The notes beneath the pieces were generated by a model that saw nothing but the letters and a program-made list of their open reading frames with translations, searched no databases and was not told the DNA's origin. This document shows, piece after piece, positions 8,867 through 40,851 of a DNA stretch of 64,000 nucleotides (its first letter is position 1; every line of letters begins with the position of its first letter). The translations under genes were made by a program, and so were the position numbers. This stretch comes from Phoronis australis (Eukaryota; Animalia; Phoronida): positions 1 through 64,000 of the forward strand of contig NMRA01000438.1 in assembly GCA_002633005.1 (NCBI GenBank), written 5' to 3'.

Positions 8867-9110
8867 CCTCCCCTGTTCCCGCCTCCCCTTTTGCCATCCC
8901 CTCTCCCTGTACCCCAACACCTCTCATTTTTTTGCATTTTTTTCTGCATCTCCCACACCCTCTGCAGGATCTTTTAATTTGGCAAATGTATTTGTATGAA
9001 GTTCACAACAGACAACGACGACATTTGGATGAATCTGACTACCGCTTTGCCCCCCATGACAATTTTGTCTTTTTTTATTGTCCCCTGTATTTTTGAAACT
9101 GCTTGGCAGA

Positions 9111-10367
9111 TTTTTATGCGCCCACAAACGCTATATGTGGACGCATTATGCCATCATCTCCGTCCATATGACGGCGTCCGTTCAGCATCAGCTGTTCTGT
9201 CTCCAAAACCCTTTGATGTATGCTCATAAAATTTTGCACATGTGTTCCTTTCATAGATGGGATGGCATGAGCGAACTTTCGGACGGATCTGACTACTGGT
9301 CCTGAACGAATTTTCATAGAATGTGGCATATAGGTATCTACTAGTGAGAGGATGCTATCACCCCGTTTTAGGATAGATTCGATGTAGTTTGGGCCACCTA
9401 ATGGCCATTTTTACTGTTTTCTAGTCTGCTTTTTGGTGTCCACCCCTCTATCAACCAAATCGCCCTAAGAATGATTGTGAAAATTGGCATGTATGCTCTT
9501 ACTATGAAGAGGACAGCTCATGACTTTCCCACGACTTTAACTACAGTGGCGCCTCCTAGTGGCAGTTTTTGTTTTTTGCGCCCATGGCTGTATCTCTTAA
9601 ACTGCCTCCAGGATCTTTACTAAATTTAGCTAGTGTATTTATATGAATGTTGCCGACAAATGACAACCACTTTTGGACTGATCTGACTACCGGTGTTCCC
9701 CCAAGTGGCAATTTTTGTTTTTACGTTTACCTCTGTGTCTTCAAAAGTCCTCAACAGATTCTCCCTAAAATTTGGAATATAAGATTCTGTTGGTGAGATG
9801 ACGCCGTTTTCTGATGGATTCGAGGTGTTTTGCGCTATCTAGTAGCCATTTTTGCTGTTTTCGAGAGTTTTGGCATCCACCCCTCTGTCAACCAAACCAT
9901 TCTAAGGGTGATTTTGATAATTGTCGGTCTTGGTGTGAAGAGGATGGTTGATGATGACGACTTTGGCTACTGTGGCACCTCCTAATGGTTACAGTTTTGT
10001 TTTGTTTTGCACCTAGAGCTGTATCTCCTAAGCCCACTGTAGGATCTTTGTTAAATTTAGTACATCGTGTATTTATATGAAACAAACAACAGGCGATGAA
10101 TTTCTGGGGGATCCAAGAAACGTTGTGCCCCCTAGTGACAATTTTATTTTTTTCCTTTTTCCTTTGTATCTCAGAAGTTCCTTGGCAAATTTTTATGAAT
10201 TTTTGTAAACAGCTTTCTTTTAAAGAAGCGATGACATGCTCTTGTTTTGGATGGATTGGACATTTTTGTGCTATCTAGTGGCCATTTTATGATACAAATA
10301 AACTGTAGAAGCACCCCATTTGCGGTACATTCATGGGTGTATTTCAATGCTCTGCGTTGCTCTTGTT
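9111..10367 (+). mobile_element. Non-autonomous Helentron/HINE-like element, copy 1, nested in an older related repeat (~8930-10740)
   Basis: 5' tttttatgcgcccaca..tgtggacgca hairpin, ccgtcc tract, internal ~145-bp tandem monomers with CTAGTGGC, 3' end ...gttgctcttgtt. Same termini as 21018-22702. T-rich insertion site, no TSD. Confidence 0.7.
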
Positions 10368-12070
10368 ATGAAATTTATTAAATAAGTTTCCATTGTAGAG
10401 TTGTCGGGTTCCTGTAATGTGTTTTCGGATAGATATGACATGTTCTTGCCGTTTATATTGTCGTGAAATTTTGGAAGGGGGCGATCACCTTTTTGGTGGC
10501 CATTTTGACATTTTTTAGTATCTTTGTTTTTGACATCACCCTCTCGGTCCACCAAACCGCTTGAAGGATCAATATTATGTTGTTTGAAGTGTGTTCCTGA
10601 TGAGAAAAATGAGGCTATTGTTGTTTTTCGATAGTGTTCAACTACTCTGGTGCCTACTAGTGGCAATTTTATAATTTTCGCATTCATGGCTGTAAGATCT
10701 TTCTGGAATTTAACAGAAGTATTCCTATGGAGTGGAAAATTTCTCAATTTTGAATTTGAAATCCATCTCAGAAGTTCTGCTCTGTTAGCAAATTGAGTAA
10801 ATCACTGGGTTATTTTGCATGAGTTTGGGTCCCTTTATATAACACTGCTTAACTGATAAAAAATTGATTTTGACCAATATTTCTAGAAATCACAATTACC
10901 ACTATTTTTATGGCCTTTTCGCAAGAATCATGCTTTTACTTGATATTCAAAAATTCAAATGTACCACAGGAAGGAAAACATTTTATGGTGATAAAAAATT
11001 ACGTTCAACTGTCTAAATTAATGGGAACTTTGGAAGTCTTTTAGATTTTATTCTATATAATAGTAATATCAAATATTTAAACATGTCAAAATGAGGTCAA
11101 AGGCGCTTTTGTAAACCAGACTTAGAAGTAGTTTGTCACTTGTTTTTAAGTAGAGGTAAATGTGCCAGAAAGTGCACAAGTCATTAAGTGTGTACTTCTT
11201 CATAATTTGATATTTGTAGGTGAAGTCAATAGCAATATTACGATCTTGCATGTACTCGTCAGTAAGCTAACCAACACCTCCCTCCATCATTATGTTATCA
11301 ATACTGGTAGCACAAATTGAAAATAATCTATAATGTTGTTCAGTCAAAATGTTTCACATTAGTATATGCTCAGTGTGAAATCAAACATGAGTTGGAAAAA
11401 CAGAACGTTTTAAAGAAGATAAGCGCAGAAATTCCGTCTGCCACATAATTTTCCGTTCGTGACATGTTTTTGTACTAATTTTATCCAAAGAATTGTTTGA
11501 ATTAAATAATTCTCAAGTTTTGATATACATACATTATTTCCATCTTGAAGATTTTTCAGAATCTGGAGTTTGGAGCAAATTATTATTTTTTTCTAAACCC
11601 AACTTCATACCCAAACCGTCAGGGACGGATAATTGTCGTTAGGTTAGTTAGTTAGGAAAAAACTAATGAAGATAATTGGTTCTACCAAATTTCAGCTTAG
11701 TCCAAGTGTCATGTTGTATTACTGTCCCCAAATCAATTTTAGACTGAAATCATGATAATTTTGATAAAAGTCGAACTGAAAAATTTGGTCTATAATGCAA
11801 TGTTTTTATTTTTTAGACAAAAACTACTGAAAAACACAGAGAGTGGCAAAACTTTAAAATATGTTGTGTGATACAACAAAGTTCAGGCATTTGACTACTT
11901 AGACACCAAGTTTCAAGAGCAAAAGCTAATTTTGAAAAAATACTTTGGAGGATCAAATGCCTCGATTTGACCCTAACTGCTCTGTATATTTGGAGTTCCT
12001 TAGCGTATTTTCAAGAAATTTATAACACTTTGTTTTACGTTAGTTACAGCGACTGTTTTGTATTTTCCAG

Positions 12071-12490
12071 GCGTGTTGGTCTCCAGCCAAGAGAATGGCG
12101 TCAATATTGACAATAATTCACCTGTGTATGCGGAGATAGGATCTAACCTGACGTTGTCGTGTCGGTATACTTGGGTGTCAGGTGGGAAGGTTGAACTTAT
12201 AGAATGGTACAAGGATAATGTGAAGTTTTTTAAACAGATTTGGATTTCAGGTGGAACTAAGCAAGAGATTACGTGGTATAATGCATATGTAGGGGATCAA
12301 CCAGGTGTATCCAAGAAAGGTGCCTTCCTTGGCAACGCCAACGACGATGCAGGCGGACCAGATGGTAACGCTGGTATGGTGATTATGAATGTGGTCAATG
12401 ATGACAAGGGAAAGTACAGGTGTGAAGTTGAAGTTGAGGCTTCAGGTGTCCCTTCTTCACATTCAGATGAAGTAGACGTAGAAATTAATA
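12071..12490 (+). CDS. Ig-superfamily receptor exon 2 (V-set Ig domain)
   Basis: ttttccag acceptor and A|GTAAGT donor, phase 1-1. Motifs LTLSCRY, IEWYK and DDKGKYRCEV are the canonical V-set C, W and DxGxYxC. Confidence 0.95.
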
Positions 12491-12995
12491 GTAAGTGAGA
12501 TCTTAATAGTGGCAGTAAAGATGTGTTCCATAAAACTAACGTAAAATTTAGACCACTCTCAACTTATTCTTAAGCATAATGTAAATTTAGCAATTTTGAC
12601 AGCTGTGCTCAGTTCATTAAAGCTCCGGAATCATATTGCTGTTTTGACCATTAGGAATAATTTGAAAACGATGTCATGACAACAAGTGATTGGATTCAAA
12701 AGTTGGTTTTTGTGACGGAAAGTGAGGTTATGACCTCTTTGAACAGTTATATTATCACAGAATATAAAAACGTCGTGTTAAAAAAAGCGGTGAATTGTTT
12801 ATGATAAACGTAATACTGTAAGAAAGTTATCAAAGTACAAACTGCTGTTTTCTAGGTGTAATCTGGTAGCATGTTATTGCTAGCTCTAAAGAATGAATGG
12901 TCTAACTGTGTTCTTTGGAAATCACATTTATGTTAATGATGTGTTACTGCTGTTTTGTATTGACGTCTTGGGAGTTTTTACGCATTAACTTTCAG

Positions 12996-13337
12996 TTGTG
13001 CCAGTAGTCCCTACTGTCACCTTTGAACCTGATAAGACGGACCTGGTTGATGGCGACAAAATAGTCATGACGTGCACTGGCAATGTGGGGTCACCTCCCG
13101 GAATGTTGTCATGGAAACGAAAATCTGGAACGATGTGGGATATACAGGGAAAACCTCAGGAGCAATTCCAGATAATCGAAAATAAAACAGACGGCAGCAA
13201 AGTTGGCAAAATTGTGTTCAACCACACATTTTTCGCTAACAACAATGACGATGGGGCAGTGTTCCGTTGCGATGCATCAAGACAGTCAATGTCGCAAAAA
13301 ATCATTTCAAGTGTTACACGGACTTTCAATGTGAAAG
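12996..13337 (+). CDS. Ig-superfamily receptor exon 3 (CD80-like C2-set Ig domain)
   Basis: tttcag acceptor and G|GTGAG donor, phase 1-1. MTCTGNVGSPPGMLSWKR...DDGAVFRCDA. Confidence 0.95.
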
Positions 13338-13996
13338 GTGAGATGATGAGTTGTTCTAACAGCTTTTTAGGGTTAAGTAGGTCTATTGCTTTATGCTATG
13401 CCGTAAACTCGTGGGTTTACGCCCATACCCGGATAATCATCTTCCCTGACTTTTGCCAAATTCGATTTTATCGCCCACTGCTTGGGTAATCACGCATACA
13501 CGTGTGTCATGTCTTCTCAATTTAAGTGCCCATGGTGTTAACCGCAATTTATGTTCTAAATTAAGTTTGAAATAGTCACTGAGTTTGGCACAGTGAGCTT
13601 CTGCAGAATAGTAGAAAATGCAATATTTTATTCATCTGCCCCAAATTCATGGTTTACGTTAAGCAACAAAAAATTATTCACTTCGATGTTAGACACGGGT
13701 TGCATGAAAAGCACTAACATTTGCTGCGTCAAGGATTTTATGAACTGCTATTCAGTCTTCTTAGTTGCACTGAAGGCAGTGTTTAACATTTTGGGAAATA
13801 TGATGGTCACCAAAAGCGTACTCTACATCCAATATCCCAATCTTTAGAAGAAAAACTGTCAATTTCAGCTTGAATTTCTTGTCCAAATTTTTGAGAAGCA
13901 CGGTCACAAACTGCAATTTTTACTGTGCCCATAAACAGTTCATTGTACACTGCCTGAAGTGCTGATTGCTCTACTGTGTTAACATATGCTTCACAG

Positions 13997-14185
13997 CTAC
14001 AAAGCCTGTGACTAACGACAACATAAACGCTAAGTCAACAGACATGGAGAGCAAGCAGGATAAGAGCAACTTTGAAGCAGGAGCCAACATTCAGCTGTTC
14101 TGTGACGTCAGTTCTTACCCTACGGCAGACATTAAGTGGATGAAAGGGGGGGAAACTGTCGGCGATAAACCCCTTTTCACAATAG
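13997..14185 (+). CDS. Ig-superfamily receptor exon 4 (third Ig domain, N-terminal half)
   Basis: ttcacag acceptor and G|GTATG donor, phase 1-1. IQLFCDVSSYPTADIKWMK. Confidence 0.93.
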
Positions 14186-14311
14186 GTATGTGTGTTCTAA
14201 TTCAGTAACTTTTAGTTCAGAAATCTTGATAGTCATACAGCACTTTAGTGGTTTATGAGATGGTTAAGGGATAGTTTCAATATTTTATGTATTGAATTTT
14301 AGCCTGTTTCT

Positions 14312-15240
14312 TATTTTATGCATATATATTGCTGCATCCGTTCTCTGGCCATCTGTTCGTCTATCCTGTGGCGGGAGCAGCCACTACTGTATCTCCTGAA
14401 ATCTCTCGCAGGATCTTAATGTGAATTTGAAGATGTGTTCCTACCAAGCTCACGGCAGATGATAATATCTTCCAGTCTGATGATCTGACTACTGTTGTGC
14501 CCCCTTGTGTCAATTTAAGTTTTTTTACAAATACATGTCATTTACCCCAGTTTGTATCTTTGGAGTTCGTAGGTGGATTTTCCTGAAATTTAGTAAACAG
14601 GTGTCTCATAAGGAGACGGCATTGCCTCCCATTTTTGGTCCGATTTGTTGTATTTTACAGCACCCAGTGAGCATTTTGTATTATTTATGAATCTGTTTTT
14701 GCTGTCTGCCTTTCTACCTGCCAGTTGATTGAAAGATCTTTTGAAAATTGGCAGATGTGTTCCTGCTGAGAAGAGCAGCTTCCTGCAGATGTTGATTTTT
14801 GTACAAACTCATGCAACTACTGTGGTGCTCCTTATCTGACGTTTTCATTTTTGTGTACGCATCGTTAGCTCCTTAACTTCTTCCACGATGTTTGTGAAAT
14901 TTGGGAAGTGATATCAACTTTGGAACGGACCTAACTACATGTGTGGTTGCATCATTACCGTCATTTCTGTCTGGGCATGCTGTATTTCTTAAAAATTTTG
15001 ACATAATTCCAGTTTCGGACAGATCCGATTTCTGCTGTGCCCCCTAGTGGCAATTTTATTTTTTACATTTACCTCAATCTGTATGTTCACTGAGAATTTC
15101 TTGACAGATTTTTCGTGAAATTTGACAAGGTTTCTATAGAAAATAGCTGCTGCACTCATCCGGGTTACCGTCGATGCTCGACTTACCACCCACCTCCGAA
15201 ATTTTCAATTTTTCATTTTCAAGCATCCATATTCTTCTTG
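14312..15240 (+). mobile_element. Degenerate copy of the HINE-like tandem-monomer repeat family (intron 4)
   Basis: Contains gtgccccctagtggcaattttattttttacatttacctc (~15037) and other monomer remnants shared with 21018-22702. Boundaries approximate. Confidence 0.55.
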
Positions 15241-15652
15241 CCGCCCATCACCAATTTTTCCTGATCGAGACTTCCTTAAAAGTGTTAATGCTTTTGTGAA
15301 TGTTCGTCACACAAATCTTAGATTCGGAAACATGCGCCACTCGCTACTACATTTCAGCGACAGTCAGTTTTAGCTGAAGCTGGACCAACAATACTGATCA
15401 GGAGATGACAATACCGTTCAATTTTGGACATGCATCATTGTGCAACATCTAATGGACATTTTTATGATACTTATAAACACCCGTAGAAGCAAGCCATTGA
15501 TGGATCAGTTGTGGCTTCATGTCAACTCTCTGTGTTGCTTTTGTTTTTCTTCGGTTGGTAATTTTTCTAAGATGCCTTAAAAAGTTGTACTCTGACTTAT
15601 GTTGTGGAGTACTGTAATAAAAATCATCGCATATGTGTTGTCTTTTTTGCAG

Positions 15653-15760
15653 ACAAAGCAAAACCAACAGATTCGGGCACCTACACTTGTGTGGCTACGA
15701 ATTATATAAACGGAACGAAACACGAAGGGAGGCGGGATGTCAAAGTGACTATAGCTGAAG
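15653..15760 (+). CDS. Ig-superfamily receptor exon 5 (third Ig domain, C-terminal half)
   Basis: ttttttgcag acceptor and G|GTAAGT donor, phase 1-1. AKPTDSGTYTCVATN carries the DxGxYxC motif. Confidence 0.95.
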
Positions 15761-16658
15761 GTAAGTGCAAGGTGCATCAAGGGTTGGAGATTTTTCATAT
15801 CGTAGGAGTGCCACCAGTTTATTGCAAGAAGGATGTGCTGCGAAACATGGTTAACTGTTCATTTTTATGCGCCACATGTGTGGTTGGATCATTACCATCA
15901 TTTCTTTCTCGGCATGCTGTATTCCTTAGATGGTAAGACAGAATACCAGTTTCCCTCCAATCAGTCTTCCGCTGCACCCCCTTGTGGCCATTTTTACACT
16001 CCCACTTATACATATGTGACGGATCTTCACAAATTCCGGCAAGCAAGTTTCTATTCATTAGTTGAGTATGGAATCCACAGATTCTGCACAACCTAATGGC
16101 CACTTTTATTAACATTTTCAAGTCCATTTTTGACATATCCTATTCTGTCCTCCAAACTGCGTAAAAATTTGCGTAAAAACTATGTGTTACTTCAAAACCG
16201 ATTCCGCCTGATGTGTATTTTTCCAATTCTCCTGATCGCCATAAGCTTAACAGTGTTGATGACGTTACATTGCAGCCTGTATACATTTATTTGATGCATT
16301 AAAGATCTCATGATGCTAGTCAGACAATGTTTATTACATGATGGTGTAGCAAGACCTTAACACTAGCGCCATCTATCATAGGCTAGGAACATTAAACATA
16401 ACTGGAAGCATAAACTTACTTTCACGTTTTATACACGAGATATGGTCAATCAGTGCATTTGCAAATATGGTCACATGGTACTTACACAATTGGCGGATTT
16501 AAGTGGTCAAGGCCATGACCATGTCGGTAGCATGTTGATTGTATTGATAGGAATTTTCCTTTGTCTTTTTACTTTTAGCACTGTACTGCCTTGGTATTCA
16601 CGGACTGTACTTGTCCTCATTCGTTATTTGTCATGTTCCTTTACAATATCGTCCCTTA

Positions 16659-17282: not shown

Positions 17283-17542
17283 AATAACGTAGAAAATATA
17301 TCTGAAACTATATAAGGCGATCCAGATCCTCCCAAGGATACTATTGTTTCGTGAAATGAAGAATATAAATCGGTAAATAAAACAACAAGAATGGATCAAC
17401 TGAAATTTGAAATTTTCGGAGGTAACAACTTCCTTTATCAATATTACTTTATTTCTGTTTTGTTGATAAAGGAAGTTGTTACCTCCGAAAATTTCAAATT
17501 TCAGTTGATCCATTCTTGTTGTTTTATTTACCGATTTATATT
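17283..17542. mobile_element. Short insertion with a perfect 80-bp inverted repeat; probable truncated Penelope-like element (inverted pLTR)
   Basis: Arms 17362-17441 and 17463-17542 are exact reverse complements with a 21-bp spacer. ttgtaaatatta occurs at 17271-17282 and 17541-17552 (TSD-like). A diverged single arm recurs at ~46622-46706. Family assignment is inference. Confidence 0.6.
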
Positions 17543-17874
17543 GTAAATATTACTAATGGACAATGCAAATTTATCCATTTCATAATGTGAAAATTGCAAG
17601 CATTTTTGCTTTGAACTCTAAGTATTAAAAATGGACAATGCAAATTATTCCATTTCTTATGTGAAAAGTACAAGCATTTTTGCTTCAGTGGGTATTACTG
17701 AATACTCAAGGTAAGGTTTTGGTTTGCAAATGAAGGTCAAAATGCGATTCACGAGGTTTCTACCTGTAGCCTTGTGTCTCTGAACGCTTATTTAGTGGCA
17801 GGTTACATGTCTGAGTCCCTACTTAACATCTAAAGATAATAAGTCAGTGTACTGAATGCACGTCTACGTTTCAG

Positions 17875-21017: not shown

Positions 21018-22702
21018 TTTTTATGCGCCCACATATTTATATGTGGACGCATTAAGGCGTCACCTCTGTCCAGTGTCCACTGCTCTATCTCCAAAACGCC
21101 TTGAGGTATGTTCATGAAATTTTGCACGTGTGTTCCTTCCGTAGGTGGGACGGCATGAGCGAACTTTCAGACGGATCCGATTACCGGTGTGCCCCCTAGT
21201 GGCAATTTTATTTTTTTACGTTTACCTCTGTATCTTCAAAAGTCCTGAACGGATTTTTGTAAAATTTGGTATATAGGCACCTATTAGTGAGATGACATTG
21301 TCCTGCTGTTTTCAGATGGATTCAACGTAGTTTGTGCCACCTAGTGGCCATTTTTACTGTTTTCAAGTTTTTTGCGTCCACTCCTCTATGAACCAAACTG
21401 CTCAAATGATGATTATGCAAATTGGCACATATGTTCTTACTATGAAGTGGACGGCTGACGATTTTTCGATGATTTCGACTACTGTAGCGCCTCCTAGTGG
21501 CAGTTTTTTTTACGCCTATGGCTATATCTCCTAAACCGTTCGAAGGATCTTTACTAAATATATTAAGTGTATTTATATGATGCTGACAACAGATGACGAT
21601 GACTTTCGGATGCATCTGACGACTGGTGCACCACCTAGTGGCAATTTTATTTTTTTACGTTTACCCCTGTATGTTCAAAGGTCCTCAACTTATTTTCATA
21701 AAATTTGGCGTACAAGCATCTTTTAATGAGGTGACGCTATCTCTTAGTTTTCAGATGAATTCGACCTAGTTTGTGCCATCTAGTGGCCATTTTTACTGTT
21801 TTCGAGTTTTTTTTGCGTCCACTCGTCTGTCAACCAAACCGCTTTCAGGATTATTGTGAAAATTGGCGTGTATGTTTTTAGTAGGAATTTCACAGCTGAC
21901 GATCATTTTCCGACGAGTTCTACAACTGTGGCACCTCCTAGTGGCAGTTTTGTTTTTTTGCGCTCATGTTTTTATCTCCTAAACCGTTTGCAGAATCTTT
22001 ACTTAATGTAACAAGTTTATTTATATGATGTTGACAACGAACGGCGACGGCTTTCAGACGGATCTGACTACTGGTGTGCCCTCTAGTGGCAATTTCTGTA
22101 TGTTCAAAGATCCTCAATAGATTTTCATAAAATTTTGAATATAGGCATCTATTGGTGAGATGACGCTATCATCCTGTTTTTGGATGGAATCAAGGTATTT
22201 TGCGCATCTTAGTGGCAATTTTTGCTGTTTTCAAATCTTGTGTTTGGCGTCCACCCCTTGATCAATCAAATCATTCTAGGGATGGTTTTGCAAATTGGTG
22301 TATATGTTTTCAGTGTGAAGAGGATGTTTGATGATGGTGACTGGCAACTGTGGCGCCTCCTATTGATAGTTTTGTTTTGTTTTGTTTTGTTTTTTGCCCA
22401 TAGCTGTATATCCAAAACCTACTGCAGGATTTTTATTAAATTTAGTAAGTGAATTTATATGAAGATAACAGATGACGACTTTCAGGCGGATCGAACGGAC
22501 ACTTTGCCCACTTCCGTTTTCCTTTATTTCTCTGAAGTTCCTTGACAGATTTTTATGACATATGGCATGTTCCCGTTTTTGGATGGATTGTACATTTTTG
22601 CGCCATCTAGTGGCCATTTTTATGATACAAAAAATAACCCTAAAAGCACACCATTTGCGATGCATTCGTTAGTACCTTTTAACGCTCCGCGTCGCTCTTG
22701 TT
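21018..22702 (+). mobile_element. Non-autonomous Helentron/HINE-like element, copy 2 (intron 8), with an internal ~440-bp higher-order repeat of three ~145-bp monomers
   Basis: 5' tttttatgcgcccacata..tatgtggacgca hairpin and 3' ...gtcgctcttgtt. Monomer types recur at ~21190/21630/22078, 21335/21775/22205 and 21488/21932/22353. Confidence 0.75.
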
Positions 22703-23330: not shown

Positions 23331-24233
23331 AGGCGAGGCAACCGTTTTTCATGTCATTTTTAGCAAAAATATGGTTCGTTGATTATCCAAGACATATTTT
23401 TCAGTTAATTACAGCGTTTTGGTAATTCAGACAATTACTCGCCCTCTACTCCGGAAGTGACGTTTTGGGGGGCAAGACTTTCACGCCAATTTATTTTTAT
23501 ATAGTCTGACTGTGAGAGCTGCCAAGTTAGTTATTGTTCTATCTCGGTTGTGATAAGTTTGGTCGTCATTTGCTTTTGTTTACAAGTCAGTCAACACTGT
23601 TGCTGCGTACCGCAATGTACTCATTATCGTCTCAAAGACATAGGAACAACTGTGCCACTTGCCCGAGTGTCCCGCGACACACTCCCACTGGATAGTGACC
23701 TGAGCACACAAACTACTTACATCCTGCCGTGTGTCTCCCTTGCCACACATGTGGATCCTTCTAAGTAGCCCCAATACTTTAGACAAGTCCACAATAAACT
23801 TATGAAAGATTGGCTCACCGATCTGTTCATTGAACGACGAACTGTCCTGTTCAGTGGGTGTCGAACTGGGCCTGTATTCACTCCCACTACTCAACATCGC
23901 AGCAGAGTTGCTTACAGACTCTGAGCGATATTGAGTACATCCTGGTATGCAGCAAAAGTGTGGCGTGTTAAATGATTTGCAAGCAACAGCAAACGATGAC
24001 CGAACTTATCACAACCGAGGTAGAACAATGACTGACTCAACAGCTCTCATAGTCAGACTATATGAAAAGAAATTGGCCCGAAATTCTTGCCTCCCAAAAT
24101 GTCACTTCCGGAGTAGAGAACGAATAATTAATTAGATTACAAAAAGCTTTTAATTTAATTGAAAAATATGTCTGGGATAATCAACGAACCTTATTTTTGC
24201 TAAAAATGTCATGAAAAAAGGTTGCCTTCACCT
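23331..24233. mobile_element. Internally deleted Kolobok-like DNA transposon (TTAA TSD, AGG...CCT ends, ~300-bp diverged TIRs)
   Basis: TTAA at 23327-23330 and 24234-24237. Ends aggcgaggcaacc and ggttgccttcacct, with long inverted similarity. THAP-like starts CCVPQC (+) and CCIPGC (-). Minus-strand remnant FIVDLSKVLGLL...WECVAGHSGKWHS. Confidence 0.8.
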
Positions 24234-30318: not shown

Positions 30319-30510
30319 TCATCTACTGCTACTTTGTTGTTGTTCCTGGTTCACTTTAGATGTATTGTCTGTCCGGTCCCGATTTACCCAATCAGGCAAT
30401 GGCGAACTCCAGTCTGCAGGGGGTCTTCTTCTGTACTCCCATACGTCATTATCCTGCGCTGCTTTCAACCTCTCCAAACGCCGTTGTGTCTCATGTTCTA
30501 TGATATTCCT
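30319..30510 (-). CDS. C22orf39: C22orf39/UPF0545 homologue exon 3 (terminal)
   Basis: Minus-strand acceptor ttccag, phase 0. RNIIEHETQRRLERLKAAQDNDVWEYRRRPPADWSSPLPDW matches the family VW..R..PP.DW..PLP motif. Confidence 0.9.
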   Translation of the reverse strand, partial: RNIIEHETQRRLERLKAAQDNDVWEYRRRPPADWSSPLPDWVNRDRTDNTSKVNQEQQQSSSR

Positions 30511-31524
30511 CTGGAATTTCAAAACACACTCGATTTTCAACATACGTCACAAATATGTGCCGCGACAATGCCATTTTTGAGCACAATTCGTCCACTGGAT
30601 TTTATAAAATTTGGCATCATTATACTGGCTTGATCGACATAAGCTACCACTTTAGTTTGATGATGACATCTTGTAAGATGGTTGTTATGATCCAAGCACG
30701 AAATGCGATTTAACTAGACAGAGTACTGTACAATCTATATATCCAAGTTCAAAAACACACTCATGGGTCACTCTAGGTAATATCTCTCATTATTTAAATT
30801 CTTTAATGAGCAATTTTGACCAATTGCCAAGAAATAGGCCTTTGAAACAGGTTTACAAACTAAACCTGGCCAACTCCAGAAATCTTGCCCAACTATATAC
30901 AGCACGCTTTAATTTAGGACAAAACTTAAGTAAATGCTAAGATTGAAATTAGTCTCAATATTTTCGAAGGCTTATGTTGTTGCTGAACATGTTTAGAATG
31001 TTACCAAACATTGTCCGCTGACGGCCGCTATAACGTACAATCTAGGCTAAAAGCAAGTTTAAAACTAAGTGTAATTTTTGCTAAGAAATTCAACACACTT
31101 AAATTTGACTTTTCCGCCATATTGTATCCAAAACTGAAAAAGTAACTGCATACTCCTCAGCTTGGGATCATTAATTAAACTGATTCAAGTCTGCAGGGAT
31201 GAGAACGACCAAACAATCAAAGCACTAGTGACTCTGCTCAGGCCATATCATTAATCATGCATAATCATAAACGGCTAGTTTGGCATTTAAAGACATCACT
31301 CTTGTCTAGCTTTAGTCGTTTTGTAATCAGTGGCCACGTCTGCAAAAATTTGTCTTTAATTATATGCCTACATTCCCTGTGACTCGTGCTGGCGCACAAA
31401 TGTAATCCCATCATAATAAAGAACATAGTATAGTTAAGAGAGTGAAGGGCCAAATTCGATTTTTTTTGGTGGCTAAAGAGGGCGAAATGTCGCTTAAAAT
31501 CACAGCTGTGTAAACAAAACGTAC

Positions 31525-31689
31525 CGCGTCGTCAGTGGAGTTTGTCTTGCGGTAACTGATGCAGGATTTATAGTCCTGCCACCACTTGTCACAGTCGAGC
31601 AACTTCCCAAACACGTAATACTGGTTTAACCGACCCATTAGGCATGTGCACTCGTAGTGTTCATCTTTATACATTTCACATGGACGGAT
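31525..31689 (-). CDS. C22orf39: C22orf39/UPF0545 homologue exon 2
   Basis: cttttcag acceptor and GCG|GTACG donor, 165 nt, phase 0-0. IRPCEMYKDEHYEC...LNQYYVFGKLLDCDKWWQDYKSC has the family's four-Cys RPCE.Y..E...C.....YY..G...C..W..D...C pattern. Confidence 0.93.
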
Positions 31690-33870
31690 CTGAAAAGACA
31701 GAATTACCACAAGTTCATTTTCAGTCATTTTTAAGTGACTTAAAAGCATGTTGGAGTTCCATCGACACGCACTTATGCGTCTGAAGTAAAAAAACTCCGT
31801 GTATGAAATATTGCAAAATCGGGCGATTTTTGGACAATCAAAATTAGAATCCCATCCCATAATTCAGTGTTCCAATCTCACCAACCTTTTTATGGTTTGC
31901 GATTTATCCAATATTGACGCCACCTGTTGGTGATTTCATGCTGCTTCAAGGATGACACAAAATACATTATTGCATACTGTGATGCATCCGCCTATCCGTT
32001 AAAAGGTCAAACATCAGTTCCTGTCGTATTGTTAGAATACACTAAAGCTCTGAATGCATACTTTTGAAACACTCACCTTTCAATCATTAATGATTTTGTA
32101 TTGTCTTACTTTTTGGCAAGATTCCTGCATCTACAGAACACAACCCTGCTTGCAAAAATTGGACGCTTAAAAAACAATTCCTACATGTATAAAAGCGTTG
32201 TGCAGTACAGTACACAAAGTATCAATCTGATCAGCCATTTCTGAGATATGGTGTTTTGAAGTTTGAAAAATATGAAATTTGTCAAGGGACTGCATAATAG
32301 TCGTCACAGGATGTGCCACCATCATATGCTGGGACTTCAGGACCTGTGTAGACAGTGAGCACTGTCTGCTCAGTAGAGACGGTGTAACTCCCATAGGAGC
32401 TTCATACGCCAGAAGTTTTTTTGGCAAATTATGCCTCAAAATGATTAAAAAATCAAAGTAATGTTGTTATAAGTACCTTTTGCGCATAGACGGACACAGA
32501 CAGGAGGCCGTCGATGTCTTTAATTCCTTCCAACTCGAACAAATATTACCAGTATCAAACTTTTTCATTGAGCAATCCTTCGTTCAGTTCCCAAAATCGG
32601 AAACTTTTTATAGTCATTTTTAACACTGAGCACCGTAGGTGGTATGACTTCATATCCCCTGGTGTGCGCAGTGTGCCAGCAGAGACGATGGTCATTGTCT
32701 ATAGGAGCCGTGCTGCTAGCATGCGGATCACTTTAGCGTCCAAACCAAATGACGCACTGAATTGGCATTTTTTTGATTGCACATCAGACAGTATTTTAGT
32801 GAGGCATTTTATACGACAGCTATTCCCAATTAAGTCATGTATCACAACATCTGGGTCGTGTCATCGTAGACGCAAGAATCATGTGAGTATGTTAGTGTGG
32901 CCACGTGCTTCCTTTGCACTGGATGACAATATCTCGCGAAATATTCTATTTACATTACATAATACACCCTTCTGGGCATGCCTTAAACAGGCCCCCGTCC
33001 CTGTTGCCCAATCTCGTTGCGGTCACCAGATATGTGTGACCTCCTCATAACTAGTGAGAACAGCATTTTTCAAAAATTTTAGAAAATGTGCATGTAATAT
33101 ACATCATTAGAAAGCTCTCCACGAGACTAAGAGAACGGTGGAAAAATTTTTTAAATCGGACTTGTGGTTCCGGAGAAAACGTCATTTTTGTGTCGAAATT
33201 TTTTATAAAAATTCTGTCAAATCGAATTTGCGAGTTTAAAATGTTATGGTTTCAAAATTAAGTAACCTAGACAGACATGTGATACAACATTTTAAACAAC
33301 TTTTTATGATAAATAATATGCCGAAAAAAACATTTTGATTGGACGTTCCTGTGCGAAGATATTGACCTTAAAAGTCAACATAGTCGACAAAGAAAAGTCA
33401 CAACATTCAATTTTGCAATTTCAAATTGACATAAAATAAGAATTACTCAAGGAAAAGAAACAAATAAGGTATCATTTTAAAGATTTTTCATCAGGAAATT
33501 TGAAATCTGATAATTGGTTGAGCAAATTATTGATATTACTTTGTGATTTTTTGTTAACATGCAATTTGCAACCGACTTAACTTTGTCAAAATCAAATACA
33601 TTAAATAAAAACTAAAGATAAACATCATTTCAAAAATGTATTGATGACAAGTATGATAAATAGAATAGTTTAATACAAATTTCTGAAAGACATATAATAA
33701 ATAGAACTTATTTAACATAAACTTTCCACAACCGAAGATCTTGTCTTGAGCCATCCAGGAATGTTCATGCTATGTACAAACAAGGACCTCAATATTTATA
33801 ATCTCAAAGTTGTCTTAAGTGATATGAGCACAAAAAGGAATGTAGGATGGACAAATAAATAAAGTTCTCA

Positions 33871-34081
33871 AGGCATCCTCAAGGAAGGGGGGCCAAACCC
33901 TTTCACTGACTACCGAAGTCAGCGGAGTACCTTACACAGATCAACTAGTGGCATCCTCAAGGAAGGGGGGCCAAACCCTTTCACTGACCAAGTCAGTGGA
34001 GTACCTTACGCAGACTTGTGGCGTCCTCAAGGAAGGGGGGCCAAACCCTTTCACTGACTATCGTAAGTCAGTGGAGTACCT
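33871..34081. repeat. Three ~65-78-bp tandem units with conserved hairpins, just downstream of the transposase stop
   Basis: ggcrtcctcaaggaaggggggccaaaccctttcactgac-[variable loop]-agtcagyggagtacct at ~33871, ~33950 and ~34020. Confidence 0.92.
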
Positions 34082-34098
34082 ATATATACAACATAGAG

Positions 34099-34209
34099 TT
34101 ATTCCAGCACTTCGAGGTCCCCTTGACCGAAGTCGTCCATCAACCGAAAGGTGTAGACAGCCTCATCTTCATCATAATGGATATTAAACCAGGATGGATA
34201 TCCAGGGAC
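34099..34209 (-). CDS. Transposase coding exon 2 (C-terminal half of Spin/Ssty Tudor-like domain)
   Basis: Minus-strand acceptor tattctttcag at 34211-34210, phase 0: VPGYPSWFNIHYDEDEAVYTFRLMDDFGQGDLEVLE*. Joins donor CAG|GTTAGT at 34480 across a 270-nt intron. Not in the ORF track. Confidence 0.9.
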   Translation of the reverse strand, partial: VPGYPSWFNIHYDEDEAVYTFRLMDDFGQGDLEVLE

Positions 34210-34479
34210 CTGAAAGAATAACATGATTCATAAACAATTTGTTGCTACGACATATAAGCATTACTAATTTGAACATTGTTACGCAAAAATGTTACCACAA
34301 CATGGAAATTATGCACAACACTTCAACAAACAAAGGCGACATAATACTATTAAACAAAAGGGTTAAAGAAAAAGGAAATAGCAAGGTAGGATACGTCAGT
34401 ACATGAAAATCAAGAGCATATTGCTTGTCAGATGTTGCGATTTGTTAATAAGCATTGCAAAAGCTCATTACATACTAAC

Positions 34480-37401
34480 CTGAGAAATAACAAAGCCATG
34501 ATACCAAACCTGGTCATCACCTTCATCAAACTTGTGCCGAACATTTTTGCCAACCAGGAAATTTGATGATGTTGGCTGCGCTGCTGACTTTGACTGCTTT
34601 ATCAAGGTTTTAACGTTCTGTGCCAGTTCCTCAGGCGACAAATTAACTCGACGTGTATTCTCCAGCTTTGTAAATCGATATGTTGTGGGGTCAGCAAGCT
34701 GATTCAGGACATACTTTCGAAAGTTCAACTGGGCTTTCAAAGCACTGGTCTTGTTTTTGATGGTTTTCAACCTTTTCAGTCGTGTTTCTACCTCTTCTTC
34801 TGTCTGCCACAGTCCCCAAACAATCATCTCACTAGTGAATTCCTCCAGCTGACGTAACTTCTTTGCTCTTGTCTCCTCCTTCTTTCTCTCTCTCTCTTCC
34901 ATTATCTCTCTTCTCCTTCTTCTGATTTCATACTCCCTCCTCTTGAACAGCTGCCTTGTTGCCCTCACGCGGCTACTGGCTCCATCAAAAAGTTTTGCTT
35001 TCTCAGCATCAGACTTGGTGTGCAACCACTGGTGGGTCTTGTTGTGGCAGTACATGACGTAGCTTTCTGCGCACAGGGTACTAACAGCCGGCATTTCCCT
35101 CAGAATTCGGTCAAAATGACCAAACACAGATTCCGAGTATTTATTATGCTTGGGTAGGCCGACTGTCTTCCTCCGGAGGTCTTCGAATTCATCGTCAGGC
35201 AGTGTGCACCACTTCCCACCTTGAAGGTGGTCGGCAAACAATCGCTGCACAACTGCCGATAAGGCTGGCAACATACATTCTAAAATCACCTGCACCTTGT
35301 CATCATGTTCCCATGATGTTACGAGACTGGCGAAGATAGGGCTGGTCTCTAGAGAGCGCTGGCTACAAAATGACATGACCAAATCTCCCAGCATAAAATC
35401 TTCCACCCTGGTGCTACACTGATAGATGAAATTCAGCACTTCCTCATAGTATGTCGAGGCATCTAGAATGTGTATACGTTTATCTTCAATGATGGTCCAG
35501 AGGGGAGAGGTGATTAGATGACAGATGAGACCAAGCGCTTTGCAGCCTGCCAGATACTCAGGAATATGAAGGTCAAACTTCACTGCTTGAAGAAGTCCAT
35601 TTGAGTCGTTGGTAGAGAGATAATTTTTGAGATATTCAGAAAGGAAGAATAGTGCAGCGGCATTGGAGAAAAGAATGTTGAAACGGTTTCCACGGTACGG
35701 TTCTATAGGCAAAGACCGAAAGCCATGGTTGGTCAGAAAATCTTGAGCAAAGACAGTAAACTCGTAGTGACAACCATTCTTCTCGTCAGCTCCTCTTGCG
35801 ATGGCCTTTGATGCTGTTCGAATGAGCCGTGATGTGCCAGATTCGGACGACCTCAAGAAAGATGAGTTGAAAATGGGAAGTGATTCACCAAAGAAACCTT
35901 TCTGGATTTCAAGTAAAGATGAAGATGCCGCCTCTGCCATGTGAACTAATGAGTGCAGACCACAGAAGAAATTGGAAATTTGGCTGACAGCCAACTGTTC
36001 ACTCTCATCCAGGGTTTCAAAATTTTCAATCATTTGTGGTAAGATGTCTTTGCGGTATTCAAACAGTAGTTCGTTAAATTTCATTTGAGTCGCAGCTCTA
36101 TCAGACATGGTAGCAGTGATGTTCAGCAAAAGTTTCTTTGTTGTTTGTGATGATGATGAGATTGATGCCGTTTCAATGTCTGCCAAAATTTCTTGAAATA
36201 CTTGAAGTGTGTTCTGGGACGATTTGGTGACAAGTTGGCGAAGACCAAGAGTGTACATGTCGCCAGCGACATCACTGATGTGAAACCCTTGGTACTTCTT
36301 GCCGAACTTTGATGTTTCGTCTGAAAGCAGGCCGAGAGGAAAAGATCCATCAGACTCAACAACCTCAGCAAGCTGTGACTGTGATAACAGTAGACGCATG
36401 ACATTCCAGTTGTTAATGGTCGACTTGCTGGGGAGATCGGATGCTTCCAAGCCGGCTAACTTTAAGACAGATGAGATCACATGAGGAATGTTTCCAGATG
36501 ATACATTTTCTTGCAATAAACTAAATACACATTCATTCATTTGGGTGCTGAACTGTCTCCCAGTTTTTGTGGTTACTATGTTGGTACCCTGGTTATTGGC
36601 TACTTCAGTTATCCATTCGATCTCCTGTTTGCTCTGATCCAGTTCTTGTTGCATTGCTTCAAGTGCTTTGTTATTGTCCTCCAACAACTTCTCTGTCTTT
36701 TCTTTTTGCTTCTCAATCTTTCTACGATTTTTTTTCTCCCTTTCATTCAAATACTGCACCTGACTTGATTTGCGTTTCAGTTTCTTACGATTACGTTGCG
36801 CCTGACTTTTCAAGTGTCTAACTTCTCTAGCTTTCTGGTGGTATTTCACTTTGAATGATTTTGGAGTTTGAGTTTCAAGTTCTTGGACTTTTCTTTTAGT
36901 TTCATGAAGTTCACATGCCAGATCATCAATTACACGCTGAAGTTCTGATGGCTGCAAAGTTGAGACGTGCGATGGCGTGGAGCGACCAGACGATGATGGA
37001 GAACGGGACGATTGTCGAGATGTACCCGGAGTTGAGGTACCAGATGACTTTGCAGAGACATCACGAGAAAAGGACAGAGTGGGTGTCCGAGAGACACTCC
37101 GAGACCTCGATGGCTGAGGGGTTGTCTCCAGTGATGTTGATGGCTGTGGAGTTATCTGACGAGGAGTCTGAGGGTGTTTTGGAATGTGAAAGTCTTTTTT
37201 GTTGAACTTTTTCAGATTCGCAAGTCCTTTTTTGTACCTGGAACTCTTGTTCAGCTTTGCAAATGTTGCGTAAACATCCTTTATGTTTGTAGCAAGCTCT
37301 TCTTTATTCACATTATCATGTTTATGAGCAATAGCATTAACAGTATCTGCAATACTGAATTTATTCTTTCGATAAATTGCAAGTACGTCCTTGATTTTCA
37401 T
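34480..37401 (-). CDS. DDE transposase coding exon 1 (974 codons; spliced product 1010 aa)
   Basis: 977-aa ORF with an S/T/P-rich linker and a coiled coil, then LLSDETSK (D361), MSDRAA (D434), FCGLH (CxxH), RGNRF and NKYSESVFG (E757). This is the DD..CxxH..E layout with a long insertion domain typical of the hAT/P/MULE/Kolobok group. Superfamily not assigned. Confidence 0.88.
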
Positions 37402-37782
37402 GGTTCAGGGTTAACTGCAAGAAATAAGAAGCAATGCAAGAAGCAGGAACAGACACCACAAAGGAACAAAAAGCGACAAAAGCAAGATTGTTAAGCATAG
37501 TGCTAACAGGTTATGCAGCACATGAAAATATAGTGTTAATAAACAAACACACCACAAAAGAAGACTGAGCAAGCATTTAAAGACCCACAAAAGCATATTA
37601 GTTGCCGAAACATGTAACATGGTTTAGAATGTCTTTCAGACAGTCATTGTTAAGTGTTAAAACAGGAAAAGCATGAAAGCGTTAAGCTAAATTCACTGTC
37701 AACCAAAGCTGTAGCAAACTCACCACACAACGTAATCTTGGTTCACAGTGAGGATTCTGAAAATAGAATAAGATACGTAATG

Positions 37783-38365
37783 TTTACCTCTGAACATTGA
37801 AGGCGAGGAATGAAATAAACATAAACATAAACTTTGATGAAAGTGTCAGTAATTTACTCACCACAGCAATTACCTCAGAACATTGAAGGAGATCGAGGAA
37901 CGAATTGAATCCAAACCGTAATGAAAGTTTTAGCAAGTTACTCACCATAGTAAATAACAATAAACACTACCACAGTGCAACAAAGGCATCAACATCAACA
38001 TGGAATCTGAAATAAAATTATATCTACATCATTGGAAATTTAAAAGTGACTGTTGTTCGGTTGTTTACTATAGAACACTAAAAGTGAAAATGAAATCAAC
38101 AGATAACTGAAGGTGGACAAAAGGGTGGGCCAAAGAGCTCGCACCCCCACAAGCAATGTTCCAAATATGTCATTTTTAGCAAAAGGCAACTATTTTATAT
38201 GTAAAACCTGCATTTAATTTTGAAATTTGTGGTTGGCCTCCTGCAACATTTTTGATCAACCACGTATAGCTGTGATGACACTTTGGAAATTACTCACCAT
38301 AGTAAATAAAAATAAACAGCATCATACAACACCATCATCACTGTCAACAGAACATGGAACCTGAA
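37783..38365 (-). repeat. Locally duplicated segments carrying minus-strand splice donors (putative multi-exon 5' UTR of the transposase)
   Basis: ttacctcwgaacattgaagg at ~37783 and ~37870; ttactcaccayag at ~37853, ~37938 and ~38290 (GGTGAGTAA on the - strand); acatggaayctgaaaata at ~37998 and ~38352 (acceptor-like on the - strand). Confidence 0.55.
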
Positions 38366-38733
38366 AATATATGAAATAGACATTGGCAGCAACAGTGGTG
38401 CTTCAGTAGACACTGAAATTTAAACTGCACCAATTACTTGGCTTAAAGACGGGCATTAATGCAAGTAAACGCACTGATGGATAACAAGAAATAATTGCAG
38501 TCAAGAAATACTCAAGTTTAAAATTCATTAAAAATTACCGTTAAGGTGCAGGCAAACTCCTTCATGAGCAAAAGAACAAAGAAGTTAATAGTTAAAGAAA
38601 AGTGGAAGAAAAAGAAGGAACTGAACTGAATGAAAGAGAACTTATAACAATGAAACTTTCTTATTGACTCAACTGTAAATAATTAACTTTTCAATTAAAT
38701 ACAACATCATGTGGGGATGACATTGATAATGAG

Positions 38734-39171
38734 TCACTTAGAGTCAGAGGTACTGGGTATACACTGTTCTGACATAAACGCAGCACGATATTTGTTTGGC
38801 AGTGTCTTGGGTGGTGGTGGTGGCATACGGTACTTCTTCACAGACTCCCCAACAGCATCAGGAGCTGAAAAGCATCGCCTGATGGGTGGAGGGGAGAGCC
38901 AAAGAGAAGGAGGCTCAGACCGTGTGTCCATGAGATCATTCAAGTCTGTGACACAAGTATGCCTGTCTGCATCACTGACCCCTTTTGGTCTCAGATAACC
39001 CACACCCGAATATGATCCTGCTTTTCCAAATATGTAAGATGAAGATCGAGAGAGGCTAGAACCAACTGAATTTACTGATAAAATGTAAGTAGAATCAGTA
39101 GAAGCAGGAAAGTAGAAGGATCTGGACCAAGAGTTAGAAGCAGAGTCTGATGAAACAGAAATGTGAGACAT
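38734..39171 (-). CDS. Ser/Pro-rich accessory or upstream ORF within the transposon (145 aa from the ATG at 39171)
   Basis: Open frame MSHISVSSDSASNSWSRS...RMPPPPPKTLPNKYRAAF, more GC-rich than its AT-rich flanks. No recognisable domain. Confidence 0.3.
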   Translation of the reverse strand: MSHISVSSDSASNSWSRSFYFPASTDSTYILSVNSVGSSLSRSSSYIFGKAGSYSGVGYLRPKGVSDADRHTCVTDLNDLMDTRSEPPSLWLSPPPIRRCFSAPDAVGESVKKYRMPPPPPKTLPNKYRAAFMSEQCIPSTSDSK

Positions 39172-40681
39172 CTTGATAGTAAACTGATAAATAGGAGTGA
39201 AATTATAAGAACAAAAAATAACAAAGAAAATAACTGGTTTGGTCCACAGCATCTTCCAACAAAGCTTACCTGGAAGATATAGACCAGGGTGAGATGTATG
39301 AATAATCTAGCAAACCTTAATTTTTTTGTTGAAAACTATATACTTGCCTGTGGTCAGAAAAAAGTTTATCGAAAGCATGTATATTTTTATGGTAGTGGAC
39401 TACAAAGTCTTGAAAACAAAGGGCTGTAGTAGAAATATGCAATTGTAATATTTGTTTAATCTAAATTTAAAATGTTTCCATTTTGTATCTTGAAATTCTG
39501 GCTAAACTGCCTTGGCCAAGAAGGCAACATATGGGTGTGGCCCTGTCTGGCAACAAGCCAATTCAACCCAAGTCTCAGTGGCTTGACCAACAAAAATGTG
39601 AGGCAAAATAGAAAATAAAACCTAAATATGAGAATCATTATTCTTACTACCAGAAATGATTGTTTAGTTCTCTTTTACATTGTGTTTTCATCAGGAAAAG
39701 TGCTTCAGTATTGTAAAACAAACATTCAACGCGATTCGCAGGAGCACCCCTAGCGGCAGTACCCGGAACTACGAAGTGAGTCAGAAAAACGCCCGATTGT
39801 CAGAAATCGACGAAGTGCTCATTAGCAACAAGTGTTTGAAATAGTTAAGTAATGAACCCTTTAGTGCGGAATACAATTCATTATGTTCGCAAATTATGCT
39901 ATATACCAATAAATTCAGATCGAAATTGAAGGTCGCGGGAATAGGCAACTTTTTCAACTTTTAAGTGCATGAAAGTGAAAACTACTTACATAATCGTGTT
40001 CGCATGAGTTCCTTCTATAAACTCACGAAGTTTCACGTCAAAATTCGAGAGTTTAGTCTTCTCCTGGGTTGAAAACCAAATAGCAGTCATTTTTACCGGC
40101 TTCCATTTTGCTCTGAAAAATCGGTGACGTCGCTGCAAAAAACTCGTGCAAAGTATTATTAAACGGATTTTGCGATAAAAAAAGACTATCAGATAAGTAA
40201 AACAACATATTATTTCATACTTTGCGATAATTTTTATTTACATTTATTATATTTTTGAGTGATTTTTTGCCGATTGTAATGTGCGAATTTTACACGGTGA
40301 CAGATACGCGAAGCGATTTGGTGACGTATGTTGTCCTCGCTATCATAACCCCCTACCTTTCCGTTTGATCTCGAACACATGGACATTAATGGAGTTCAGT
40401 TTCAATTCTGTCAACGGAATGAAAGAGTAGTTGGAACAAGGTTTTAATTTTTATAAATATGGTGTATTTGAGACATGCTCCAGAAAGATGGAGATAAGCT
40501 CCCTCTGCCGCCGGCGTTACACTCCCCATCTGTCTCGGGCTCGGCTCAGTGGTCTAGTGACGGTCTGGCAATGTCCTGAGCAAAATGAGCAGGAAATGTT
40601 CGGTTACACTTCATCTACATAGTTTCACAGAAGTCTGTCTTTTCAAATGAGCAGAAATTTCCAAAAAAATTAACGTATTAC

Positions 40682-40732
40682 CATCCACGAATCCTCTAAA
40701 CTTTCATTGTTTACTTTACCCGTTCCCGACAT
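40682..40732 (-). CDS. C22orf39: C22orf39/UPF0545 homologue exon 1 (MSGTGKVNNESLEDSWM)
   Basis: ATG at 40732 and donor ATG|GTAATA, 51 nt, phase 0. Splicing gives DSWM|IRPCE, placing the Trp just before RPCE as recalled for this family. Total 135 aa. Not in the ORF track. Confidence 0.8.
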
Positions 40733-40851
40733 TCGGAACACCTGTTGTGTACTACGTCATGCACGAAAGTGATGACGATGGGCGCAAGGAAGCAAATAAA
40801 CTGTCAGTTGACAAACAAGCAGTCTCGTTGACGGTACAAGCGCAGGTGAGT
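40733..40851. promoter_or_regulatory. Probable bidirectional promoter with a + strand first-exon donor (CAG|GTGAGT at 40845/40846) of an unidentified divergent gene
   Basis: CpG-enriched ~110 bp with CRE half-sites, between the - strand ATG (40732) and a consensus + strand donor. Followed by >20 kb of T-rich intron-like DNA. Confidence 0.5.

Follow-up and report, generated by a model that had tools for sequence, protein, structure and literature searches.

A hAT-like transposon of Phoronis australis with a predicted Spindlin-type Tudor domain at the end of its transposase

Can a cut-and-paste transposase carry its own reader of histone marks? The question is raised by a minus-strand gene in a 64,000-nt stretch of the phoronid Phoronis australis (contig NMRA01000438.1 of assembly GCA_002633005.1, positions 1–64,000, forward strand), here called the window, to which all coordinates refer. 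A preliminary description of this DNA proposed a DDE transposase fused to a Spin/Ssty-type Tudor domain with an intact methyl-lysine cage, within a mobile element. This proposal was supported by an empty allele, a target-site duplication, a Hermes-like fold and the cage residues. The gene lies in an intact 7.3-kb hAT-like cut-and-paste transposon. We favour, at a probability of roughly 0.55, the reading that the spliced transposase has a Spin domain that would bind methylated histone H3, probably trimethylated at lysine 4 (H3K4me3), and would bias insertion to promoters. Feature coordinates are collected in Table 1.

The element was delimited by an empty site. A contig from a DNA sequencing run (X1) joined position 33044 directly to 40343 with zero to one differences, leaving a single copy of the flanking 7-mer, as a pre-insertion site would have. 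Since the empty allele defines the ends independently, the exact 7-bp duplication that falls at those ends supports a mobile element, whose termini read TAG…CTA. Further X1 contigs matched the element interior exactly, and both alleles are present in this run, which possibly comes from the same sample as the window and is hence not independent of it. We infer a recent and polymorphic insertion. Another DNA contig joint connected 40342 with 33052, and an internal-deletion joint (34330–38843) occurred among the DNA contigs. Contig depth, which does not equal copy number, was ~160–1,060 at the element ends versus 10–21 over the transposase open reading frame (ORF); together with the deletion joint, this excess fits many shortened non-autonomous derivatives. 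A scan for inverted repeats with duplications in 28 of 66 related loci revealed no complete TAG-ended element and gave mostly AT-rich repeat pairs that resemble those of shuffled flanks (58 versus 83 in three shuffles), while an end motif like that of the window occurred three times in the 66 loci, near chance.

The ORF list places 977 codons on the minus strand at 34468–37401, nearly all of them in exon 1. This exon encodes an N-terminal helical domain, a disordered Ser/Pro stretch, a coiled coil, the DDE core and long C-terminal helices. The usual DDE layout is seen in the AlphaFold model (mean predicted local distance difference test score (pLDDT) 85.8), where D361 is part of the first strand of the core, D434 comes immediately past one of the later strands and E757 belongs to a helix. 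The catalytic set D361/D434/CxxH/E757 read from the sequence earlier was borne out: all residues are present (the CxxH as C480-x-x-H483), D434, H483, R573-F574-N575 and E757 are invariant in 70 aligned relatives and D361 and C480 are retained in at least 90% of these. A CxxH after the second catalytic Asp is typical of hATs, which excise with a hairpin on the flanking DNA and carry R-W-N where this family has its invariant R-F-N. Structural comparison pointed the same way, as Foldseek ranks 1–10 were all Hermes (best expectation value (E) 3.1e-7) and VIA-align gave Hermes a Z score of 18.0 (root-mean-square deviation (rmsd) 3.4, 346 aligned residues, the match reaching Hermes residue 609), ahead of ISCth4 (Z 11.1) and the P element (Z 8.7). 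No transposase Pfam family matched the window ORF, with the N-terminal BED zinc finger and the PF05699 dimerisation domain absent at E up to 1, and neither had a Pfam match at 0.05 in 34 relatives. The nearest named ESM Atlas clusters, DUF659, DUF7963, FAM200-ZBED5 and Dimer_Tnp_hAT, all lay at 0.76–0.77, to be taken as a lead only. By its modelled fold, the enzyme, which the preliminary description had left unclassified, is a hAT-like cut-and-paste DDE transposase. The nearest unnamed Atlas clusters to residues 275–800 (0.91–0.94) include members from Basidiomycota and Cnidaria, and the distribution of the core may extend to fungi.

Among known transposons, the element is like the hAT Hermes (PDB 6dww, 4d1q, 8sjd, 8edg, 2bw3) in its DDE core, an RNase H fold interrupted by a large helical insertion, the CxxH past the second Asp, short inverted repeats and deletion derivatives. 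It differs in its ~12% identity, the 7-bp duplication, the missing BED finger and PF05699 matches, R-F-N, and the long C-terminal helices with the Spin domain. The 7 bp were seen at this one site; hAT duplications usually measure 8 bp, but subgroups with 5, 6 and 7 bp exist (Kojima 2025, PMC12730594). A 7-bp duplication is shared with fungal hAT7, which however clusters with Ac and Tam3 (PMC12730594). In hATx-6, the duplication measures 8 bp and both BED and PF05699 are present (PMC8721813). TAG termini are shared with hATm, which differs in its TAGGGTG termini, 8–9-bp duplications and PF05699 (PMC6004678). The element does not match hATm, as only TAG is shared at the ends and the duplication is 7 bp. 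The family may be the hATw group catalogued in Repbase and Dfam, which has a 7-bp duplication; the literature consulted, including PMC12905397 and PMC12730594, yielded no hATw definition or sequence.

The reader domain is split by a predicted intron. The 977-residue ORF, the donor at 34480, the in-frame intron of 270 nt and the 36-codon exon were all found in the sequence as previously claimed. Read on the minus strand from 34479 to 34210, the intron starts with GTTAGT and finishes with TTTCAG, 34480 being the last exon base, and its predicted removal gives a product of 1,010 amino acids with zero internal stops. We infer that the intron is spliced in the window copy. Against the PDB, exon 2 alone matched 17 sequences, all of them Spindlins (E 4.9e-9 to 2.5e-7; next match 0.79), and matches to Spindlins only at E <1e-6 place the Spin identity beyond chance. 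In PDB sequence searches, neither the isolated first half of the domain nor the unspliced ORF had a match. The two halves tile the Pfam Spin-Ssty model (PF02513), with the ORF end covering positions 1–29 and exon 2 positions 27–50; scanned apart, each scored 12.2–19.0 bits, below the gathering score of 25, a cut-off passed by 18 of 24 full-domain relatives. With a profile built from these 24, the spliced product scored 98.7 bits and the unspliced one 32.9. The PDB and profile results bear out the Spin/Ssty-type C terminus of the preliminary description.

Among the three repeats of SPIN1, the family profile scored repeat 2 highest (66 bits), followed by repeat 1 (45) and repeat 3 (29). For superposition, the spliced domain of the window was represented by a structure model of the corresponding domain of a relative (P0020). 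This model (pLDDT 96.9; template modelling score 0.84–0.94 to Spindlins) matched SPIN4 residues 118–176 at Z 10.1 and rmsd 0.7, with the RDM15 Tudor as the next fold (Z 8.2), and lay within an rmsd of 0.7–1.0 Å of Spindlin repeat 2. A Spindlin-like barrel is thus predicted, directly for the relative and by proxy for the window copy. In SPIN1, the K4me3 pocket is formed by F141, W151, Y170 and Y177, and E142, D189 and D184 anchor H3 A1/R2 (Su 2014, PMC3967050). HMMER alignments paired F141 with F958, W151 with Y967, Y170 with Y986, D173 with D989, Y177 with Y993 and D184 with D1000, in agreement with the earlier mapping by eye, and placed D959 at the E142 and D1005 at the D189 position. All seven pocket and anchor positions of repeat 2 are thus aromatic or acidic in the window protein. 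The likeness to repeat 2 of Spindlin1–4 (PF02513; PDB 4mzg, 4h75, 7cna, 4uy4) hence covers the fold, through the relative's model, the cage and the acidic anchors. Judged from sequence, the tail is one Spin/Ssty Tudor domain, closest to Spindlin repeat 2, with the cage aromatics kept.

The fusion is a family-wide trait and not a local event. With an E limit of 1e-30, a profile search returned 2,034 clusters, and the named family members belong to bivalves and gastropods as well as to a sea urchin and an annelid. Sorted by pattern, the 98 first homologs comprised 24 with the full domain, 39 that end just past an ISQ-type motif and 35 with neither. At the DNA level, a Spin-profile match was present in 24 of the 66 related loci. 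Five of these (L003, L005, L009, L043 and L052) contain both domain halves, and in all five GT and AG stand at the identical codon boundary, enclosing introns of 308–533 nt; the remainder show an acceptor (two), a donor (one), a domain in one frame (11), two weak tandem repeats (three) or a cut or partial domain (two). In a FastTree tree of 157 cores, a 56-row branch with a Shimodaira–Hasegawa-like support of 94 (not starred) contains the window copy together with 42 of 47 intron-cut forms and six NCBI gene models, whose spliced status is assumed, and is nested among uninterrupted forms. The conserved intron position and this tree placement indicate that the two halves are one domain. A Spin-type end was found in 114 of the 157 cores, all with a long enough tail: 65 full, including that of the window, 47 intron-cut and two double.

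Some tails depart from this pattern. Two tandem Spin-like repeats end the transposase in P0154, P0161, L016 (12437–12880), L029 (1635–2054) and L060 (6335–6684); such tails score weakly (8–26 bits), and P0154 matches Pfam Agenet, not Spin-Ssty. Further downstream, neither the window nor any of 16 loci examined showed another Spin exon. A sister clade (P0091–P0094, P0173, P0187, P0212 and others) carries another Tudor-like barrel without a Pfam match. A zf-CW tail on P0098, which we take to resemble host MORC, was rejected as a probable gene-model chimera, as its transposase stops before the last catalytic residue.

The insertion site was examined for its relation to promoters. A PANTS-like (C22orf39-type) gene on the minus strand has parts at 30322–31689 and, as predicted, at 40682–40732, and its probable first intron houses the element. 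The first coding exon of PANTS in relatives presumably ends in Trp-x, and among the 15 candidates lying within 13 kb, 40732–40682 alone ended this way (four of 53 did so overall), which makes it the best first exon. The element thus probably sits in host intron 1, 390 bp downstream of the start codon, where the insertion would extend the intron from 1,694 to 8,992 nt. Near the predicted start codon, the observed-to-expected CpG ratio is ~1.0 versus a window median of 0.61. A promoter-proximal position fits promoter targeting.

In the mechanism that we favour, the transposase would bind the TAG-ended repeats, cut, and insert in hAT fashion with a 7-bp stagger. The cage of F958, Y967, Y986 and Y993 would hold a trimethyl-lysine and D1000 and D1005 the H3 N terminus, both as in SPIN1 repeat 2. 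The Spin barrel on a methylated H3 tail, most likely H3K4me3, would then tether the enzyme to active-promoter chromatin, and tethering would bias insertion towards promoters.

Several observations weigh against this proposal. The structural part of the claimed 34480/34209 splice stood (phase 0, GT–AG, conserved position), but no spliced read over the junction is listed in three raw same-species RNA runs of very low depth (18–19% of each read), where coverage was ~0–0.4 in the intron and near zero over the ORF. Set beside Spindlin host proteins, the tail is fused to a transposase, has one repeat rather than three and carries Tyr at the W151 position; in SPIN1, the three repeats form one integrated globule (Su 2014, PMC3967050). 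Conservation is uneven as well. Among 143 full domains, which come from 325 related stored proteins picked with a same-family profile so that the counts are not independent, the cage is aromatic at all four positions in 93 and at three or more in 139, leaving 50 without a full cage, and the D189 position is Asn in 30. The E142 position is unconserved, being acidic in six of 24 relatives. Tyr at the Y170 position (141 of 143) and Asp at the D184 position (136 of 143) are kept far more widely, but SPIN1 repeat 1 too has Asp at the latter, so its conservation may be structural. The domain is also dispensable in the lineage, since 21 of the 157 cores, including one clade of six, have no recognised barrel and 22 end in the different Tudor-like one. 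Finally, the promoter-proximal site is a single case with a predicted first exon, and Tol2, a hAT without a known reader, favours start sites and H3K4me3 regions (PMC3413126).

Part of this evidence would suit a barrel that makes general contact with the nucleosome, DNA or a partner protein and reads no specific mark. Small beta-barrel tails are borne by integrases and offer an analogue, the sister clade has its other barrel at the same place, and the incomplete cages point in this direction. SPIN1 itself also binds the non-histone partners SPINDOC and HBx, according to PDB titles. We nevertheless consider this explanation unlikely, given the fully aromatic cage of the window copy, the wide retention of the Y170 and D184 residues and a closest match to repeat 2, which reads K4me3.

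Alternatively, the domain could read methyl-lysine for regulation, by keeping the transposase at its own active locus, gating cleavage or competing with host silencing readers, or it could prefer a different mark, for example H4K20me3 or H3K9me3. The PHD finger of RAG2 gates cleavage. PDB titles include SPIN1 in complex with H4K20me3 and with K4me3-K9me3 peptides; Grau-Bove et al. propose that captured readers may help elements evade suppression (10.1101/2021.11.30.470311), and the example of Tol2 indicates that hATs reach promoters without a reader. The residues equivalent to the H3 A1/R2 anchors are nevertheless present in this copy, and its insertion site, the only one observed, probably lies close to a promoter, which makes regulation or another mark improbable in our judgement. 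Two further readings, an artefactual join between a transposase and a stray Spindlin exon of the host and a domesticated host gene, are nearly excluded: the missing spliced read and the NCBI label 'SPIN3-like protein' on some relatives would fit, but both halves are enclosed by the inverted repeats and the target-site duplication, there is an empty allele, and the same intron recurs in all five loci with both halves next to 11 one-frame loci.

Two wider proposals go beyond the favoured reading of promoter bias through a methylated H3 tail. That a large animal hAT-like lineage with its own H3K4me3 reader self-targets active promoters is a possibility that we put forward tentatively, the caution applying to mark-guided targeting. 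An origin of vertebrate Spindlin from the mobile Spin domain, or a sister relationship between the two, is doubtful. In the Spin search, 102 of 111 matches follow a transposase-profile match and the other nine are fragments, most with the family helix preceding the domain; this apparent linkage of all 111 to transposases comes from a search that missed vertebrate Spindlins and cannot show absence. As no vertebrate Spindlin was returned, the same search cannot show invertebrates to be without host Spin proteins, and when short proteins consisting of a Spin domain by itself were sought, just two of five candidates matched.

Reader domains on transposons, including a hAT with a chromodomain, are already published; the Spin-type fusion was not found in print in the literature that we searched. 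Grau-Bove et al. describe 823 fusions of readers with transposable elements (TEs), including a hAT with a chromodomain in the sponge Ephydatia (10.1101/2021.11.30.470311), and a 2025 Ectocarpus paper presents Gypsy-10_Ec32 as the first TE for which a Tudor domain is reported (PMC12477816). The main texts of both contain no word starting with 'spin'. SPIN1 is reported to silence young TEs in a 2026 preprint. Chromodomain Gypsy integrases, Gypsy-10_Ec32 and the Ephydatia hAT resemble the present element in fusing a reader to an integrating enzyme as a proposed insertion guide; they differ in being retroelements or chromodomain/PHD fusions (10.1101/2021.11.30.470311, PMC12477816). The preliminary description knew of no transposon family with a DDE–Spin fusion, and our search of the literature, with Repbase, Dfam, most subscription papers and the Grau-Bove supplements outside its scope, likewise found no publication on one.

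If the proposed mechanism is true, a cut-and-paste transposase would choose its landing sites via a built-in reader of an active-promoter mark, whereas the reader-bearing cases in the literature consulted are mostly retroelement chromodomains. The copy is intact, with defined ends and an empty allele, and the idea is therefore directly testable; swapping or removing the barrel would probe how target choice is set, with relevance to transposon vectors. Where the Spindlin domain came from would also become a testable question through this family. In practical terms, Mya arenaria NCBI gene models labelled 'SPIN3-like' or 'SPIN4-like' (P0018, P0020, P0030 and P0081) are transposases of this family.

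Table 1 Features of the transposon and its host gene in the window.
Feature	Position	Strand	Remarks
Full-length hAT-like DNA transposon	33052–40342	−	7,291 bp; ends set by the contig joining 33044 to 40343
Target-site duplication, left copy, 7 bp	33045–33051		Identical to 40343–40349
Target-site duplication, right copy, 7 bp	40343–40349		Exact match to left copy
Terminal inverted repeat (15 bp), transposase 3' side	33052–33066	+	Begins TAG; 12 of its 15 bases shared with the opposite end
Terminal inverted repeat (15 bp), transposase 5' side	40328–40342	−	Begins TAG on the minus strand
Transposase exon 1, 974 codons	34480–37401	−	ORF and AlphaFold model
hAT-like DDE core, residues 317–794	35020–36453	−	D361, D434, C480xxH483, R573-F-N, E757; conservation in relatives; Hermes top in Foldseek and VIA-align
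Spin/Ssty domain, first half	34480–34557	−	Residues 949–974 (F958, D959, Y967); PF02513 positions 1–26/29, weak alone; profile alignments to SPIN1 repeat 2
Predicted intron, 270 nt	34210–34479	−	Phase 0, GT–AG, inside the Spin domain; from sequence
Exon 2	34099–34209	−	36 codons and stop; residues 975–1010, Spin/Ssty second half (Y986, D989, Y993, D1000, D1005)
Three tandem repeats, 70–78 nt each	33866–34081		Downstream of the stop codon; repeat families
Four GTGAGT donor-like sites (38297, 37945, 37861, 37723)	37723–38360	−	May end short untranslated transposase exons; from sequence
172-codon Ser/Pro-rich ORF in the element	38734–39252	−	Coding status doubtful
PANTS-like (C22orf39-type) host coding exon	31525–31689	−	PF11326, E 1.1e-12, 48.5 bits versus cut-off 27
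Predicted first coding exon of PANTS-like gene, 17 codons	40682–40732	−	Predicted from the Trp-x exon end; start codon 390 bp from the element end

Within the element, the donor-like sites upstream of the transposase belong to a run of repeated short exon-like units (37723–38360, minus strand). For the 172-codon ORF, the Pfam scan was blank and no counterpart was found in the 66 related loci; low RNA coverage at 38682–39349 may derive from other copies. Beside the predicted host start codon, a plus-strand donor-like site near 40846 (40700–40850) suggests a possible bidirectional promoter, and no coding exon of a divergent plus-strand gene was found among 34 downstream frames. The same host intron contains a high-copy repeat at 32229–32700, with a DNA contig depth of up to ~9,200.

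Elsewhere, the window holds plus-strand exons of an immunoglobulin-domain gene (12004–16093), a dispersed family of ~430–450-nt tandem units (9000–10700, 14450–15060 and 21060–22560) and long inverted repeats that resemble miniature transposons (23336–24227 and 17348–17556). Positions 1–300 recur without change at 2390–2689, a duplication at least 300 nt long with a spacing of 2,389 nt.

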